In this document: one piece after another, positions 6,704 through 57,333 of the stretch
Position numbering within the stretch: the first letter of the stretch is position 1
Layout of the letters: each line of letters starts with the position of its first letter
Sequence record: NC_055780.1
Length of the DNA stretch: 64,000 bases
Origin: Escherichia phage MLF4
Strand: one strand, 5' to 3'
The notes under the pieces: generated by a model
The model's database searches: none
Told to the model about the DNA's origin: nothing
The model's input: only the letters and a program-made list of their open reading frames with translations
Position numbers and translations under genes: made by a program

Positions 6704-6866
6704 AAAGCAGATGTTTTTAATGAAGCTAATTGAAGAATATGCTAATGCAGTTTCTGACTATGAGTATTCTGCTCGGGAAAGAGGTACGGCTTTCGCTAAA
6801 GAAGAATTGAAAATCATGGTTGATGCTCATACAAAGCTTCAGAATTTTATCGAAAACGTCATTTAA
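6693..6866 (+). CDS. hypothetical small protein (57 aa)
   Basis: ATG overlapping upstream 3' end; below ORF-track cutoff. Confidence 0.35.
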   Translation: MKTEKQMFLMKLIEEYANAVSDYEYSARERGTAFAKEELKIMVDAHTKLQNFIENVI

Positions 6867-6868
6867 TG

Positions 6869-6898
6869 GTTTACAAGTTGGCAAGGTTATGGTATAGT
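6869..6898 (+). promoter_or_regulatory. T4-type early promoter
   Basis: GTTTAC 6869-6874, 18-nt spacer, TATAGT 6893-6898. Confidence 0.55.
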
Positions 6899-6926
6899 AA
6901 TCTTGTCAACTGCCAAGGAGAAGAGA

Positions 6927-7031
6927 ATGAAAGTTTTGTTTGTTGTGTATGTGATGATTCAATATAATTACCCAATGTTTACTTATAATCTGGTGAACAA
7001 TATTATTGATATGATTCAGAGGAGTATGTAA
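6927..7031 (+). CDS. tiny hydrophobic ORF (34 aa)
   Basis: ATG after strong SD AAGGAGAAG right after promoter; TAATG overlap with next gene. Confidence 0.25.
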   Translation: MKVLFVVYVMIQYNYPMFTYNLVNNIIDMIQRSM

Positions 7032-16513: not shown

Positions 16514-16899
16514 AAAAGCGTTTATTAGAAGACATTGCAGCTTCAAGTAATTCCAGTTTAATTAAAATTATTATGGCTGGTGAGGAAGATGATATGGAAA
16601 TGCGTGGAAAGATTCACGGCTGCGACGATTTAGATTTTAAACCTCCAGCATGGGATGCTATTATGGCTATGGTTGAACGACGTGAAAGAGCTTCTAAAAA
16701 CGTTCCTAATTGCCCTGAATGCGGTACTGAACAAGTTCAGTTGATTAACTGGCGTAAACCAGAGCTTGAATATAAATGCCGTCAATGTAAACATAAATTC
16801 AGTAAGCATGCTCCGGAAATGGTTAAATTGCCTGACTCTACTGAGTTCTTTAAAGAACTTGTGAGTGTTCAACCAATGCCTAATAATATTTTGGATTAA
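16510..16899 (+). CDS. zinc-ribbon protein (129 aa)
   Basis: ATGA overlap; CPECG..(17)..CRQC four-Cys motif. Confidence 0.5.
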
Positions 16900-16901
16900 A
16901 A

Positions 16902-17144
16902 ATGACCAAGCGTAAAGAATATATGGAGGCTGCTGAAAAGGCAGTCCGTGAATTAGCAATAGCTTATTATAATGAACACGGTAAATTTCCTGATAGATAC
17001 AGCGTGCTTAAATCTGCTTTAACTCGTTCATATAAAAATATGCTATCAGAAGTAAGTGATATTATATACAAACATAAAGAACAAACGGGCCAAAGTCTTG
17101 ATTACGACGAGACTTTTAAACAAGTACTAGGAATTAAGGAATAA
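16902..17144 (+). CDS. hypothetical protein (80 aa)
   Basis: ATG 2 nt after upstream stop. Confidence 0.45.
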
Positions 17145-17145
17145 T

Positions 17146-17409
17146 ATGTTTAAAGTATATGGTTATGATAGCAACATTCATAAATGTGTGTATTGCGATA
17201 ATGCAAAACGTCTTTTGACCGTGAAGAAACAGCCGTTTGAATTTATCAACATTATGCCGGAAAAAGGTGTTTTTGATGATGAGAAAATCGCTGAGCTTCT
17301 GACTAAACTAGGTCGTGATACTCAAATCGGCTTGACAATGCCCCAGGTATTTGCTCCTGATGGAAGTCATATTGGTGGATTTGACCAACTGCGAGAATAT
17401 TTTAAATGA
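17146..17409 (+). CDS. nrdC: phage glutaredoxin/thioredoxin NrdC (87 aa)
   Basis: ATG after AAGGA; CVYC active site; matches recollection of T4 NrdC. Confidence 0.85.
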   Translation: MFKVYGYDSNIHKCVYCDNAKRLLTVKKQPFEFINIMPEKGVFDDEKIAELLTKLGRDTQIGLTMPQVFAPDGSHIGGFDQLREYFK

Positions 17410-17621
17410 TGCTCGAAGGAACTGACTATATTCATGATTACCGCGGAAGCGCGGTATATGTAGGTGATGAAGTTGCAGTTTATTATGGGTATGGAACTTT
17501 GATGACAGCCAAGGTTATTCAAATTAAAAATAATCGTGCTAAACTCGAAGTTTATTATTCTAATGGTGAAAAGTCTATTTCTAAGTGGAAATACGGCGAT
17601 TGTATGGTTAAATTGGGGTAA
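17406..17621 (+). CDS. hypothetical protein (71 aa)
   Basis: ATGA overlap with nrdC stop. Confidence 0.45.
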   Translation: MMLEGTDYIHDYRGSAVYVGDEVAVYYGYGTLMTAKVIQIKNNRAKLEVYYSNGEKSISKWKYGDCMVKLG

Positions 17622-17623
17622 AT

Positions 17624-17794
17624 ATGATTTACGATATTAATGTATCACGAGCTCCGTCAATGGTTACTATTCCAGCCGAAGAACTAGATCGTCTTCAGAA
17701 AATTGAAGAACTTCTTTGGGAAATTGAATGTGACCTGCCATCAGGACTAGAATCCTGGATTGATGATGAAGAACTTAATAAATTGCGAAATTAA
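17624..17794 (+). CDS. hypothetical small acidic protein (56 aa)
   Basis: ATG 2 nt after upstream stop; below ORF-track cutoff. Confidence 0.3.
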   Translation: MIYDINVSRAPSMVTIPAEELDRLQKIEELLWEIECDLPSGLESWIDDEELNKLRN

Positions 17795-17804
17795 TTGGTG
17801 AAAA

Positions 17805-18125
17805 ATGACTATTGAAAATAAATTAGATGTTGATGCAGTTCTGAGCGAAATCATTGAAGACCATGATGCATTTTCGGAAAACTATGATTTCGATTTTTCC
17901 AATTATCTTAAACCTGTCGAAATAGAAGACTGGGTGCAAGATGGTAAATGTCAATATCGTCAGTGTGTTTACTTTAGTCCAAAACATAATGTACATGTGG
18001 CTGTAAATGAATCTCGGTCAGGTTCTTATCATTCTGACTGGTATTATGCAGTTCCGACTGTTGAACTAGTCGAGCTCCATGAACGTGTAGTAACTCAGAC
18101 AGTACGAGAATGGATTACGCTATAA
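17805..18125 (+). CDS. hypothetical protein (106 aa)
   Basis: First ATG of the ORF; upstream AT-rich, weak SD. Confidence 0.45.
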   Translation: MTIENKLDVDAVLSEIIEDHDAFSENYDFDFSNYLKPVEIEDWVQDGKCQYRQCVYFSPKHNVHVAVNESRSGSYHSDWYYAVPTVELVELHERVVTQTVREWITL

Positions 18126-18265
18126 AACCTTGGTGGGCGGCTAGATGGGAAACTGTAGAGTCAGAGCCGGAAGAACCGGTTTACACTGATGAAGAAACAG
18201 TATATAATGAACCAACGATAAATGACTTAATTGATATGGAGATGGGACATGATTACAGTAGATAA
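18110..18265 (+). CDS. possible small acidic protein (51 aa)
   Basis: ATG ORF bridging two genes, overlapping both by about 16 nt; below ORF-track cutoff; weak SD. Confidence 0.25.
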   Translation: MDYAIKPWWAARWETVESEPEEPVYTDEETVYNEPTINDLIDMEMGHDYSR

Positions 18266-18734
18266 GTGGTTTAGAATTAATCGTACTGATACAGGGCTGT
18301 GTAATTACTGGCCGGAACTTAGTGCAGGTACTGTCTTTAAAGTTCGTGAACTCGCAAAAGAATGTGAAGATGATATAGAGCCTGACACTGGAATTATTGA
18401 AATTGAACTTTCTGATGGAAAAATTATTAACATCTACGATAAGCCAATTACGTATTGGTGCTTGTGGAATACTGAATCAGTAGAAAATGGCGAAATTGAA
18501 GAAGTTGTAGAGAGAACTAATCAAGTTGTTCAGAAGCCTAAAGCCGATTTTCAAGGTGAACGTATTCCATACGCATTAGCTAAATTAGCTGCGCAAGAAA
18601 ATAACGATGGCTATGAAGGTAACCTGATGCAAGCTGCCGCAGAATACATTGAATGGCTTGAAAATCAAATTTCTTTTTCTGACCAAAAGATTCGGCAATA
18701 TAAGCGATTGAATCAAATGTTTTACAATACTTGA
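18249..18734 (+). CDS. hypothetical protein (161 aa) at the pin (protease-inhibitor) position next to gene 49
   Basis: ORF-track start 18231 is TTG; ATG 18249 after GGAGATGGG; assignment by size and position only. Confidence 0.45.
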   Translation: MITVDKWFRINRTDTGLCNYWPELSAGTVFKVRELAKECEDDIEPDTGIIEIELSDGKIINIYDKPITYWCLWNTESVENGEIEEVVERTNQVVQKPKADFQGERIPYALAKLAAQENNDGYEGNLMQAAAEYIEWLENQISFSDQKIRQYKRLNQMFYNT

Positions 18735-18745
18735 AAATAATAAAT

Positions 18746-18770
18746 ACCCTTATCTATTTAAGGTAAGGGT
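18746..18770 (+). promoter_or_regulatory. leader hairpin upstream of gene 49 (ACCCTTA / TAAGGGT, 11-nt loop)
   Basis: 7-bp inverted repeat covering the AAGG of the gene 49 RBS. Confidence 0.4.
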
Positions 18771-18775
18771 TTATT

Positions 18776-19249
18776 ATGTTATTGACTGGCAAATTATATA
18801 AAGAAGAAAAACAGAAATTTTATGATGCACAAAACGGTAAATGCTTAATTTGCCAACGAGAACTAAATCCTGATGTTCAAGCTAATCACCTTGACCATGA
18901 CCATGAATTAAATGGACCAAAAGCAGGAAAGGTACGTGGATTGCTTTGTAATCTCTGCAATGCCGCAGAAGGTCAAATGAAGCATAAATTTAATCGTTCT
19001 GGCTTAAAGGGACAAGGTGTTGATTATCTTGAATGGTTAGAAAATTTACTTACTTATTTAAAATCCGATTACACCCAAAATAATATTCACCCTAACTTTG
19101 TTGGAGATAAATCAAAGGAATTTTCTCGTTTAGGAAAAGAGGAAATGATGGCTGAGATGCTTCAAAGAGGATTTGAATATAATGAATCTGACACTAAAAC
19201 ACAATTAATAGCTTCATTTAAGAAGCAGCTTAGAAAGAGTTTAAAATGA
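18776..19249 (+). CDS. 49: endonuclease VII, Holliday-junction resolvase (157 aa)
   Basis: N-terminus MLLTGKLYKEEKQKFYDAQNGKCLICQ and HDHELNGPKAG motif match recollection of T4 gp49. Confidence 0.85.
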   Translation: MLLTGKLYKEEKQKFYDAQNGKCLICQRELNPDVQANHLDHDHELNGPKAGKVRGLLCNLCNAAEGQMKHKFNRSGLKGQGVDYLEWLENLLTYLKSDYTQNNIHPNFVGDKSKEFSRLGKEEMMAEMLQRGFEYNESDTKTQLIASFKKQLRKSLK

Positions 19250-44235: not shown

Positions 44236-45264
44236 ATGTCATCAATACCTTGGATTGATAATGAGTTTGCATACCGTGCATTAGCTCATTTACCTAAATT
44301 CACACAAGTAAATAATAGTTCAACTTTTAAATTGCGGTTTAGATGCCCTGTTTGTGGAGATTCAAAAACCGACCAGAATAAAGCTCGTGGATGGTATTAT
44401 GGTGATAATAATGAAGGAAATATTCATTGTTATAACTGTAACTATCATGCACCAATTGGAATATATTTAAAGGAGTTTGAACCTGATTTATATCGTGAGT
44501 ATATCTTTGAAATAAGAAAAGAAAAAGGTAAAAGTCGTCCAGTAGAAAAACCTAAAGAACTTCCTAAACAACCTGAGAAGAAAATAATTAAATCTCTTCC
44601 GTCATGTGTTCGATTAGATAAACTGGCGGAAGACCATGCAATTATAAAATATGTAAAAGCTCGTTGTATTCCAAAGGATAAATGGAAATATCTTTGGTTT
44701 ACAACCGAATGGCCTAAATTAGTTAATAGCATAGCACCGGGAACATACAAAAAGGAAATTTCTGAGCCTCGTCTTGTTATTCCAATTTATAATGCTAATG
44801 GAAAAGCTGAGTCTTTTCAAGGACGTGCATTAAAGAAAGATGCTCCTCAAAAATATATCACCATCAAAGCTTATCCTGAGGCAACAAAAATCTATGGAGT
44901 CGAACGAGTTAAAGATGGTGATGTATATGTTCTAGAAGGACCTATAGATTCACTTTTTATTGAAAATGGTATAGCTATTACGGGTGGTCAATTAGACCTA
45001 GAAGTTGTTCCATTTAAAGATAGACGAGTGTGGGTTTTAGATAATGAACCTCGTCACCCTGACACTATCAAGCGAATGACTAAATTAGTTGATGCAGGAG
45101 AAAGGGTTATGTTTTGGGATAAATCTCCCTGGAAATCAAAAGATGTTAATGATATGATTAGAAAGGAAGGTGCAACCCCTGAACAAATTATGGAATATAT
45201 GAAAAATAATATTGCCCAGGGGTTGATGGCTAAAATGCGGTTATCTAAATATGCTAAGATTTAA
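44236..45264 (+). CDS. 61: DNA primase gp61 (342 aa)
   Basis: Zn ribbon CPVCGDS..CYNCNYH and TOPRIM-like EGPIDSLF; size. Confidence 0.85.
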   Translation: MSSIPWIDNEFAYRALAHLPKFTQVNNSSTFKLRFRCPVCGDSKTDQNKARGWYYGDNNEGNIHCYNCNYHAPIGIYLKEFEPDLYREYIFEIRKEKGKSRPVEKPKELPKQPEKKIIKSLPSCVRLDKLAEDHAIIKYVKARCIPKDKWKYLWFTTEWPKLVNSIAPGTYKKEISEPRLVIPIYNANGKAESFQGRALKKDAPQKYITIKAYPEATKIYGVERVKDGDVYVLEGPIDSLFIENGIAITGGQLDLEVVPFKDRRVWVLDNEPRHPDTIKRMTKLVDAGERVMFWDKSPWKSKDVNDMIRKEGATPEQIMEYMKNNIAQGLMAKMRLSKYAKI

Positions 45265-45461
45265 ATTAACCCAACTAAAGCAAATGCTAAATCTACGAAT
45301 GTATCAAGAGTAACTACTGGAATATTAATACCATGTGCAATTGCAATAGGTGATAGAATAAAGTTCCAGAGTAAAATTCCTACCATAGCAGAAATAGTAA
45401 AAGCTATACGTTTTTTATTACCTTTTATGGCATTAACAAGTGCCATTAATTTTTGTACCAT
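45261..45461 (-). CDS. small membrane protein (66 aa) on the opposite strand
   Basis: Only convincing minus-strand ORF; strong SD AAGGAGG 4 nt before ATG; two hydrophobic segments. Confidence 0.45.
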   Translation of the reverse strand: MVQKLMALVNAIKGNKKRIAFTISAMVGILLWNFILSPIAIAHGINIPVVTLDTFVDLAFALVGLI

Positions 45462-45473
45462 ATGTCCTCCTTA

Positions 45474-45498
45474 TTGCTTTATATATTTATTGTATAAT
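45474..45498 (+). promoter_or_regulatory. MotA-dependent middle-promoter-like element upstream of 56
   Basis: TTGCTTTA 45474-45481, 11-nt spacing, TATAAT 45493-45498. Confidence 0.45.
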
Positions 45499-45532
45499 TA
45501 ATCTACTAACCCATGAATTGAAAGGAAAAATA

Positions 45533-46051
45533 ATGGCTTACTTTAATGAATGTGCTCATTTGATCGAAGGTGTTGATAAAGCAAATCGTGCATATGCTGA
45601 GAATATTATGCACAATATTGACCCACTGCAGGTTATGCTTGATATGCAGCGGCATTTACAGATTCGTTTGGCTAATGATAAACCAGAAACAAATCGTCAT
45701 CCTGATTCACTTGAAACTGCAGGAGAAGTTCTTGCTTGGTTGCGAAACCAAGACGATTATATCGCAGATGAAACTCGCGAACTATATACTTCTCTTGGTG
45801 GTATGAGTAATGGTGAAAAAGAAGCTTCTGCTGTATGGAAACCTTGGAAGAAACGTTATTCTGAAATGCAATCCAAGAAAATTCAAGATTTATCTCCCGA
45901 AGATCAGCTTGAAATTAAATTTGAACTGATTGACCAATTTCACTTTTTCATGAATAAATTTATTGCTCTTGGAATGTCAGCTGAAGAAATCTTTAAACTT
46001 TATTACCTGAAAAATGCTGAAAACTTCGCTCGTCAAGACCGAGGTTATTAA
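45533..46051 (+). CDS. 56: dCTP pyrophosphatase gp56 (172 aa)
   Basis: ATG after AAAGGAAAAA; MAYFNECAHLIEGVDKA matches recollection of T4 gp56; ORF-track start 45440 is upstream hydrophobic read-in. Confidence 0.85.
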   Translation: MAYFNECAHLIEGVDKANRAYAENIMHNIDPLQVMLDMQRHLQIRLANDKPETNRHPDSLETAGEVLAWLRNQDDYIADETRELYTSLGGMSNGEKEASAVWKPWKKRYSEMQSKKIQDLSPEDQLEIKFELIDQFHFFMNKFIALGMSAEEIFKLYYLKNAENFARQDRGY

Positions 46052-46254
46052 TGGCTCGTTTAAATAAGCGTCAGCTTAAGAAAGCCCATAAGAAACGTAT
46101 TGACCAGCTATTTAAAGATTATAACAAGGAGCTCGTATGTGAGCTCTTATCTAATCAGCTTCGCAAAGCTTACATAATTAAAACTGGGCATATACCATTA
46201 GGCAAGTGGGTACATGAAGAAGCCTTAAAATTAATTATAGAGCATTCAAAATGA
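46051..46254 (+). CDS. hypothetical basic protein (67 aa)
   Basis: TAATG overlap with 56 stop. Confidence 0.45.
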   Translation: MARLNKRQLKKAHKKRIDQLFKDYNKELVCELLSNQLRKAYIIKTGHIPLGKWVHEEALKLIIEHSK

Positions 46255-46460
46255 AATTTAATTTTTATGCATGGCAAAAAGCCGGGAGACCGGCTAGTCG
46301 AGCATTTGGTTCTGATGGATATAATATTAGAGCCCATTGGAAATTTAATGCTCCAGACGATTATTCTCCGGTAATTATTAACGGCGATGTTGTTATATTA
46401 ACTAAAATTGGGTATTTTAACGTTCCGCGAGAATTTATTATAAATAATCATGTAATTTAA
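46251..46460 (+). CDS. hypothetical protein (69 aa)
   Basis: ATGA overlap. Confidence 0.45.
   Translation: MKFNFYAWQKAGRPASRAFGSDGYNIRAHWKFNAPDDYSPVIINGDVVILTKIGYFNVPREFIINNHVI
46439..46446 (+). promoter_or_regulatory. T4 late promoter box TATAAATA upstream of soc
   Basis: Exact TATAAATA about 30 nt upstream of soc ATG. Confidence 0.5.
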
Positions 46461-56782: not shown

Positions 56783-56959
56783 ATGCCAATGTATGATTAT
56801 AAATGCCAATCTGAAGACTGCGGGCATGAATATGAAAAAATTAAAAAGATTTCTGAACGAGAAAATGATGTTTGCCCTAAATGTCATCGTTTGTCTACTC
56901 GTCGGCCTTCTGCTCCTAAGCATGTGAATGGCGGATTTTACGACTTACTTAAAGGATAA
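56783..56959 (+). CDS. small zinc-ribbon protein (58 aa)
   Basis: ATG after AAGGAATAATT; CxxC..(19)..CxxC; below ORF-track cutoff. Confidence 0.4.
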   Translation: MPMYDYKCQSEDCGHEYEKIKKISERENDVCPKCHRLSTRRPSAPKHVNGGFYDLLKG

Positions 56960-56961
56960 TT

Positions 56962-57333
56962 ATGTTTAAAATCGGTAAGAAGTATCGTATTCGCAAAGGC
57001 GAAGAAAAGAAATATCTAATGTCTGCTATTTATAGGAATGGTTCTATTAATGCTGTAATATCTACAAACGAATTTATCGTTGAAGATATGAAAGGTCATA
57101 ATGTTACAATGATTAGTACAGCATCCGGAAATGATGGAAAAATTCTTCACAGTTTTCAGAGTAATGTTCTAATTTATGATGAAGAATTTGACTTCTTCGA
57201 AGAAGTCACAGAAGATTTTGATTTTGAATGCACTATTACCATGAAATCTGGCGACCCTCTTTCTTTTACAGTTAAAGATGAAAGAAGTCGCTTGAGAATT
57301 ATTAGTCTTCTTCAAGCCATTAAATTTGAGTGA
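56962..57333 (+). CDS. hypothetical protein (123 aa)
   Basis: ATG 2 nt after upstream stop. Confidence 0.45.
   Translation: MFKIGKKYRIRKGEEKKYLMSAIYRNGSINAVISTNEFIVEDMKGHNVTMISTASGNDGKILHSFQSNVLIYDEEFDFFEEVTEDFDFECTITMKSGDPLSFTVKDERSRLRIISLLQAIKFE

Follow-up and report, generated by a model that had tools for sequence, protein, structure and literature searches.

Between the primase gene 61 and the dCTPase gene 56 of Escherichia phage MLF4 (NC_055780.1), whose 64,000-nucleotide stretch analysed here we call the window, lies an interval of 268 bp (the last base of gene 61 is 45264 and the first of gene 56 is 45533), in line with the approximately 270 bp given in the original prediction. This interval holds a minus-strand open reading frame (ORF) for a 66-aa product, and both the ORF list and the sequence itself confirm its ATG start and the Shine-Dalgarno sequence just before it (AAGGAGG, 4 nt, ATG). 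The features of the locus are:

44236–45264, plus strand: gene 61 (primase, 342 aa), convergent with the ORF (from the sequence and ORF list).
45261–45461, minus strand: coding sequence, stop codon included, assigned to the 66-aa Dam.1 ortholog, PHROG 2024 (from the ORF list, identity with T4T Dam.1, the phrog_2024 match and purifying selection).
45466–45472, minus strand: Shine-Dalgarno sequence AAGGAGG, 4 nt before the ATG of the ORF (from direct reading of the sequence).
45474–45498, plus strand: middle promoter of gene 56, with MotA box TTGCTTTA at 45474–45481, an 11-nt spacer and a −10 element TATAAT at 45493–45498.
45484–45491, minus strand: late-promoter-like box AATAAATA, the variant of TATAAATA with A at −13, 29 nt upstream of the ATG.
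45533–46051, plus strand: gene 56 (dCTPase, ATG at 45533), divergent from the ORF (from the sequence and ORF list).

The palindrome TTAA at 45261–45264 is common to the TAA of the ORF and the TAA of gene 61, and the two genes thereby form a 4-base convergent overlap. The original prediction had the ORF running head-on into the gene 56 middle promoter, and the geometry is in fact the reverse: the ORF begins next to that promoter and is read in the direction leading away from it (i.e., the two are divergent, back to back), and its head-on partner is gene 61, through the overlapping stop codons. A plus-strand hairpin with a T-run at 45427–45446 is weak and unremarkable.

A crude test of the whole window, in which the longest plus-strand ORFs were laid down (92% coverage) and minus-strand ORFs were then sought in the gaps, left 45261–45461 as the sole ATG-started minus-strand ORF of at least 40 aa within a true gap in plus-strand coding, in agreement with the view that this is the only convincing minus-strand gene in the 64 kb. 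The remaining ATG-started minus-strand candidates lie over small plus-strand genes, e.g., 61.1 and a 58-aa zinc-ribbon ORF (56783–56959), or share most of their length with one. The gap at 6704–7030 holds two TTG-started ORFs, both unconvincing.

Sequence identity and shared position mark the ORF as the ortholog of T4 dam.1. This protein-coding gene is conserved among enterobacterial T4-like phages and is already known: as dam.1 in T4T, as a "hypothetical protein" in hundreds of records and as PHROG 2024. The T4 copy sits at the same place and is 95–97% identical to the ORF in the window. In the T4T record (HM137666) it is annotated as "dam.1, hypothetical protein" at 17724–17924 (T4Tp032 / ADJ39749.1), where it abuts gene 61 (17921–18949) with dam (16832–17611) on its other side. 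The RefSeq T4 record (NC_000866.4), on the other hand, omits it: nothing is annotated between the end of dam (17625) and the start of gene 61 (17935), and the dam.1 ORF lies there intact and unannotated at 17738–17938. The ORF is also found in T6, RB18, RB3 and hundreds of other phages.

The original prediction was right that T4 carries a much larger interval here, as the T4 61–56 interval measures 1149 bp with dam inside it and segF beyond gene 56; the conclusion drawn from it, that MLF4 carries a different, compact insert, did not survive alignment. When the window was aligned with T4, T6 and KAW1E185, homology ran through the whole ORF: the sequences are nearly identical from the final part of gene 61 through the ORF and its ribosome-binding site to the ATATTTAT word. 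Beyond that word T4 has approximately 880 extra bases (dam and its flanks), after which homology returns at the gene 56 promoter. The same compact arrangement occurs in T6, KAW1E185, RB18 and many others, and neither dam nor segF has a homolog anywhere in the window (tblastn E>1). The interval in the window is thus short because the dam cassette is absent, as in T6 and RB18, and the presence or absence of that cassette is the sole difference from T4 at this site. A novel phage-specific insert that replaced the T4 dam/gene 69 region would account for an interval of 268 rather than 1149 bp, but with the length difference fully explained by the dam cassette, and with an ORF that is syntenic and 95–97% identical in T4 and present in hundreds of relatives, we regard this proposal as refuted and its residual probability as negligible. 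A third state exists in one further genome (L012), which has dam plus an extra 186-aa ORF at the site; given these three states (dam-less, dam, and dam plus the 186-aa ORF), we take the site to be an indel hot spot beside a stable small ORF. The tally of 353 of 552 "contiguous" loci, in which pieces were joined across a dam-sized gap, is not usable as a frequency of the dam-less state.

Is the ORF translated? A search with the 66-aa product (tblastn against 50,697 phage records) returned 691 matching records, 685 of them near full length, with identities of 89–100% in Tequatrovirus and 43–57% in Mosigvirus and Gaprivervirus. The product matches phrog_2024 (annotated "unknown function") at E=1.4e-31, with residues 2–66 aligned to positions 1–65 of the 65-position profile. 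Profile searches of 5.8 and 1.8 billion proteins recovered only small proteins of 57–70 aa with one common signature, the few exceptions in length being fragments and one 97-aa form. That signature comprises a basic cluster, a hydrophobic helix with W-N-[F/Y/L]-x3-P-x-A-A, then x2-G-x2-L-P-P and x2-[L/I/M]-[E/D], and finally a short amphipathic helix. The window protein carries it throughout: the length, the basic cluster, the W-N...P and G...LP-P elements and the acidic start of the C-terminal helix. Across the family P38 is invariant and N33, G44 and L47 are at least 90% conserved, as is W32 in smaller alignments.

Substitution patterns (Nei–Gojobori counts) likewise bear the mark of a coding gene. 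Synonymous changes prevail in Tequatrovirus and Mosigvirus (dN/dS 0.07–0.3): they make up 15 of 19 between two mosigviruses (L005–L017; P=1.4e-6, dN/dS 0.07), 9 of 12 between T4 and L013 (P=2.4e-4, dN/dS 0.09) and 9 of 14 between the window and L013 (P=1.4e-3, dN/dS 0.15). For Gaprivervirus pairs the counts are 6 of 13 and 7 of 18 (P 0.11 and 0.19; dN/dS 0.4–0.55). The T-even group falls into two subfamilies, and gapriverviruses have one copy of each in tandem; the weaker selection signal there coincides with the presence of two copies.

These data bear directly on whether the frame might be a chance, untranslated one, kept open by DNA constraints from an oriA or promoter region or from the end of gene 61. 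Such an origin would fit a small, AT-rich ORF that is missing from the curated T4 RefSeq annotation and that in T6 has lost its first ATG, which is replaced there by ATT. It fits poorly with a frame intact in 685 of the 691 matching phage records, across genera that are only 20–55% identical in protein, and with a significant synonymous excess and a conserved Shine-Dalgarno sequence; we consider it very improbable. By these comparative measures dam.1 is a real coding gene under purifying selection, and the original prediction was correct in treating it as genuine. The loss of the first ATG in T6 and the existence of a few truncated variants mean that the gene may nevertheless be dispensable.

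Gene order around dam.1 was compared in Tequatrovirus, Mosigvirus, Gaprivervirus, Klebsiella phage Potts1, Salmonella phage STP4-a and the metagenomic contigs L019, L025 and L030. In all of these lineages dam.1 has the primase gene on one flank and the gene 56 side on the other, runs counter to the early genes around it and retains a GGAGG-type Shine-Dalgarno sequence. The 4-nt stop overlap with gene 61 is present in T4, Mosigvirus, Gaprivervirus, Potts1, STP4-a, L025, L030 and the window; in L019 an extra 124-aa ORF stands between dam.1 and the primase gene and overlaps dam.1 by the same 4 nt.

A convergent overlap kept across T4-like lineages wherever the two genes adjoin, together with the lack of any terminator-like site on the minus strand inside gene 61, would suit a locus whose main product is a late RNA that runs antisense into gene 61 and lowers primase mRNA late in infection, with the peptide secondary. 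What the comparisons preserve, however, is a translated product—purifying selection acts on the protein, and the strong Shine-Dalgarno sequence, the length and the motif are all conserved—and temperate relatives keep the protein without any primase gene. Nor did Rfam yield a family in the whole window or the interval, and the predicted fold of the 5′ region of the putative mRNA was no better than that of shuffled sequences (z=−0.16). An RNA as main product is accordingly improbable in our judgement.

Upstream of the ORF, two promoter-like elements are interleaved. The gene 56 middle promoter aligns with the sequence upstream of T4 gene 56 (TTGCTTA...TATAAT), its MotA box being called on the consensus of T4 middle promoters; the corresponding gene 56 transcript of T4 carries the annotation of primer RNA for the origin oriA. 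The late-promoter-like box of the ORF sits on the opposite strand inside the spacer between the MotA box and the −10 element, so that the two promoters stand back to back, while in T4 the dam cassette separates the late box from the gene 56 middle promoter. A NATAAATA word is found 22–40 nt upstream of the ATG in eight of nine lineages, although the sequences flanking it have diverged. The boxes are AATAAATA in the window and Mosigvirus, GATAAATA in T4 and L019, CATAAATA in Gaprivervirus, L025 and L030 and TATAAATA in Potts1; STP4-a, the ninth lineage, is the exception with ATTAAATA.

The word is also rare in the genome. ATAAATA is approximately 6-fold depleted, with 7 occurrences on both strands of the 64-kb window against 40.8±6.6 expected from shuffles, the one in the late box of the ORF being at 45484–45490 on the minus strand, and TATAAATA occurs 3 times against 10.4 expected, one of these being the soc late promoter (46439–46446). 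The other minus-strand ATAAATA words (at 782, 43863 and 57027) have no credible ORF downstream. In T4 a late promoter is an 8-bp TATA box that lies about one helical turn ahead of the transcription start, and late transcripts can have either polarity; among the T4 late sites listed, 32 of 50 are perfect, and A at −13 is the commonest variant, with 9 of 50 (Geiduschek and Kassavetis, PMC2988020). The AATAAATA box of the window thus resembles the TATAAATA-type boxes of late genes in being the A(−13) variant, conserved across lineages and rare in the genome. From the conserved box and the documented variants we infer a late gene with a leader of approximately 16 nt; dam.1 is, then, probably late, and its promoter may be weak, as most lineages have a base other than T at the first position of the box. 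Our literature search found no paper mentioning dam.1, no transcript, ribosome or protein data for it and no T4 ribosome-profiling or start-site data over the ORF.

The product was originally described as a two-helix hydrophobic protein, and half of this description holds. Hydropathy and a position-independent Hessa scale agree on one robust transmembrane segment at approximately residues 19–42 (summed ΔG −1 to +3 kcal/mol across the family), preceded by an N-terminal region with a net charge of +5. The second proposed helix is another matter: the C-terminal segment (47–66), which contains two Asp, scores +5 to +10 kcal/mol as a 19-mer across the family on the crude Hessa scale, and its acidic residues are conserved. 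An AlphaFold model (22-sequence alignment; mean pLDDT 78) places helices at 2–12, 16–42 and 52–63. The most likely topology predicted from these data is single-pass with the N-terminus inside and a short periplasmic or interfacial helix, and a helical hairpin is a conceivable alternative. By analogy with the general behaviour of membrane proteins, the invariant Asn in the membrane helix suggests self-association.

What such a protein might do is approached here through its relatives. Pfam, NCBIfam and PADLOC gave nothing above threshold for the window protein, and a sequence profile search of the PDB gave spurious transmembrane matches only, to acetylcholine-receptor M4 helices. Foldseek against BFVD found family members only; one of these bears the name "Holin," a label chosen by its submitter that carries no evidential weight. 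Among 37 family members, four matched PF11351 (GTA_holin_3TM), with a best E-value of 0.007; three of them (P0109, P0114 and P0120) share one register, with the family Trp on profile position 84, and the best detailed score (15.3 bits, P0120) is below the gathering threshold of 24.8, while the window protein itself has no Pfam match, PF11351 included. Six members matched phrog_11161 and two matched phrog_3427, both annotated "holin," the latter over profile positions 75–125 of 141. In a control with the 37 sequences reversed, no holin was matched and no family was matched by more than one member, though one reversed sequence reached E=5e-4 against an unrelated PHROG. When hhalign compared the family profile with the 81-aa "GTA-like holin" of Pseudanabaena phage Pan1, the probability was 86%, and that protein is itself sub-threshold for PF11351. 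All of these holin similarities lie below curated thresholds, and for the putative RcGTA holin rcc00556 (PF11351) the function itself stands on limited evidence (PMC3423380).

The gene's surroundings are not those of a holin in a lysis cassette: the neighbours of dam.1 are replication genes, i.e., the primase and dCTPase genes. Temperate relatives are likewise found off lysis cassettes, with no lysin called near the one in L022 and, in an E. coli prophage, a lysozyme gene several genes away on the other strand. T4-like phages already possess holin T. More specific holin features were tried and rejected. A class II holin or pinholin does not fit a protein that ends in ...ALVGLI without a charged tail and whose second transmembrane domain is doubtful, and a Met1/Lys4/Met6 dual-start motif is confined to Tequatrovirus, with neither Mosigvirus nor Gaprivervirus having it. 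A role as a holin-like protein or in lysis timing, suggested by weak but recurring profile similarities, is offered as a tentative guess. The stronger form of this idea, in which Dam.1/PHROG 2024 would be a holin-derived late membrane microprotein and an unrecognised part of T-even lysis control (timing or lysis inhibition), we hold to be unlikely; in one variant of it the late transcript would also act as an antisense brake on primase mRNA.

The positions of the temperate relatives invite a different function, that of an envelope-protective or superinfection-exclusion accessory protein that keeps DNA from entering or shields the infected (or lysogenic) cell. Those relatives occupy accessory "moron" positions: the one in L022 stands after the tail-tip J gene and before the integrase, another comes last among the genes of an E. 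coli prophage integrated in yegD, and one adjoins a gene with a RelA_SpoT domain, while in T4-like phages dam.1 and spackle are a few genes apart. The temperate positions suit a membrane "moron" (an exclusion factor, for instance) about as well as they suit a holin. This positional argument is circumstantial, however, and scans of the 37 family members against Pfam and PHROG gave no Imm or Spackle family match; moreover, T4 Imm and Sp are early genes, whereas dam.1 has a late-type word and no MotA box on its own strand. We consider an exclusion role rather unlikely.

Taken as a whole, we think it likely that the locus holds a dam.1 ortholog in a dam-less gap, expressed late and encoding a membrane protein, for which a holin-like function is the present guess. 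Under this explanation, gp55-RNA polymerase would transcribe the ORF late from the AATAAATA box at 45491–45484, giving a message with a leader of some 16 nt and a strong Shine-Dalgarno sequence. The protein would then insert into the inner membrane, its basic N-terminus remaining cytoplasmic and one transmembrane helix presenting the invariant W-N-x4-P face, followed on the periplasmic side by the short G...LP-P turn and the acidic amphipathic helix. As a guess at the final step, the Asn-containing helix would self-associate, and the protein would modulate membrane permeability or lysis timing as a holin-like module.

The main value of this analysis lies in a correction: what had been read as a new insert is a conserved, catalogued hypothetical gene, and the annotation of NC_000866.4 leaves out an ORF that is, by the comparative evidence, real and under purifying selection. 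The locus also presents what appears to be a late gene in the "wrong" orientation, whose promoter word and the gene 56 middle promoter are interleaved. The small membrane protein encoded by dam.1 is conserved in every enterobacterial T4-like genus that we examined, its holin-like lead is a weak one, and the gene is a cheap knockout target. Should the holin-derived reading be true, the gene would have been missed in six decades of T4 genetics partly through an unannotated T4 reference record.

Among known systems, the closest counterpart is T4 Dam.1 itself, which is 97% identical over 66 residues and shares the site, the strand relation, the Shine-Dalgarno sequence and the late-box word; the two differ in the upstream gene, which is dam in T4 and gene 56 in the window, and in the box (GATAAATA in T4 versus AATAAATA in the window). 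T4 late genes located in early regions, e.g., soc, likewise combine a short leader and a strong Shine-Dalgarno sequence with a TATAAATA-type box near the start, but the first base of the dam.1 box is A, G or C in most lineages and not T. Several members of the dam.1 family show a sub-threshold, in-register likeness to the last approximately 50 profile positions of GTA_holin_3TM, namely a basic stretch, then a transmembrane segment that contains Pro and an aromatic-polar-aromatic motif, and lastly an amphipathic helix of acidic character. GTA_holin_3TM, however, is about twice the length of dam.1 and has three transmembrane segments as against one robust segment, and dam.1, unlike holins in lysis cassettes, has no adjacent endolysin gene. 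The small T4 membrane proteins Imm, Sp and RI and the RIII-T system are small, envelope-located, non-essential accessory factors, as the small dam.1 product may be, yet Pfam and PHROG scans detected no sequence relationship between them and dam.1, and their genes lie on the early strand whereas dam.1 lies on the opposite strand with a late-type promoter.

An indel hot spot lies between the late box of the dam.1 ortholog (its late-promoter-like word) and the middle promoter of gene 56; comparison of the homologous loci reveals at least three states there: empty (the window, T6 and KAW1E185), dam alone (T4), and dam together with a 186-aa ORF (the Tequatrovirus locus L012).

Window 45462-45532, compared with its counterparts in T4 (L004) and L012: indel site
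L012:1841-2401, minus strand: 186-aa ORF (IMGVR_UViG_2974787500_000001, Tequatrovirus)

In L012, the dam.1 ortholog and dam flank this additional ORF, with which the dam start overlaps by 1 nt. The 186-aa ORF had no match among PDB sequences; it carries a PD-(D/E)xK-like motif (..FDIVISRNGKKHIIEIKHQ..) and may encode a nuclease that partners the Dam methylase.

The dam.1 site was also compared in T6 (L003) and Gaprivervirus (L006-L008), and a distant member of the family was found on a short metagenomic contig (L024) and another form on a Raoultella chromosome.

L003 (AP018814) 2501-2701: T6 dam.1 ortholog
L006:1995-2401 and L008:1995-2401: tandem dam.1 paralogs, Gaprivervirus
L024:129-1383 region: distant family member, 59 aa

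ATT replaces the first ATG of the T6 ortholog, whose annotation begins at Met6 (61 aa), and the product names around it in AP018814 ("terminase," "ferredoxin," "head morphogenesis") were evidently mis-transferred. In L006 and L008, paralogs of 65 and 66 aa (~20% identity) lie in tandem at the site, 8 nt apart, the second belonging to a subfamily that Klebsiella phages carry alone; in TH40 (L007), this second copy appears degraded. The Raoultella form is 97 aa long. Directly downstream of the 59-aa member lies a gene for a 352-aa RelA_SpoT-domain protein, and the dam.1-family protein there may serve a toxSAS or CapRel-like module as its membrane partner.

Across both strands, the window strongly avoids late-promoter words: the T4-type word TATAAATA occurs three times (10.4 expected) and the shorter ATAAATA seven times (40.8±6.6 expected). 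No credible ORF was found downstream of either of these minus-strand occurrences:

Window 57027-57034, minus strand: TATAAATA
Window 782, minus strand: ATAAATA

Two other stretches of the window were considered.

Window 6704-7030: plus-strand coding gap, 327 bp
Window 46051-46460, plus strand: gene 56-soc interval with two small ORFs (67 and 69 aa)

Neither strand of the former holds a convincing ORF, and the gap has no match in Rfam. In the RefSeq annotation of KAW1E185, the counterparts of the two small ORFs are labelled "virion structural protein" and "head protein." A search of the whole window returned no segF; in T4 this homing endonuclease gene occupies the gene 56-soc position, whereas in the window the 67-aa and 69-aa ORFs stand there.
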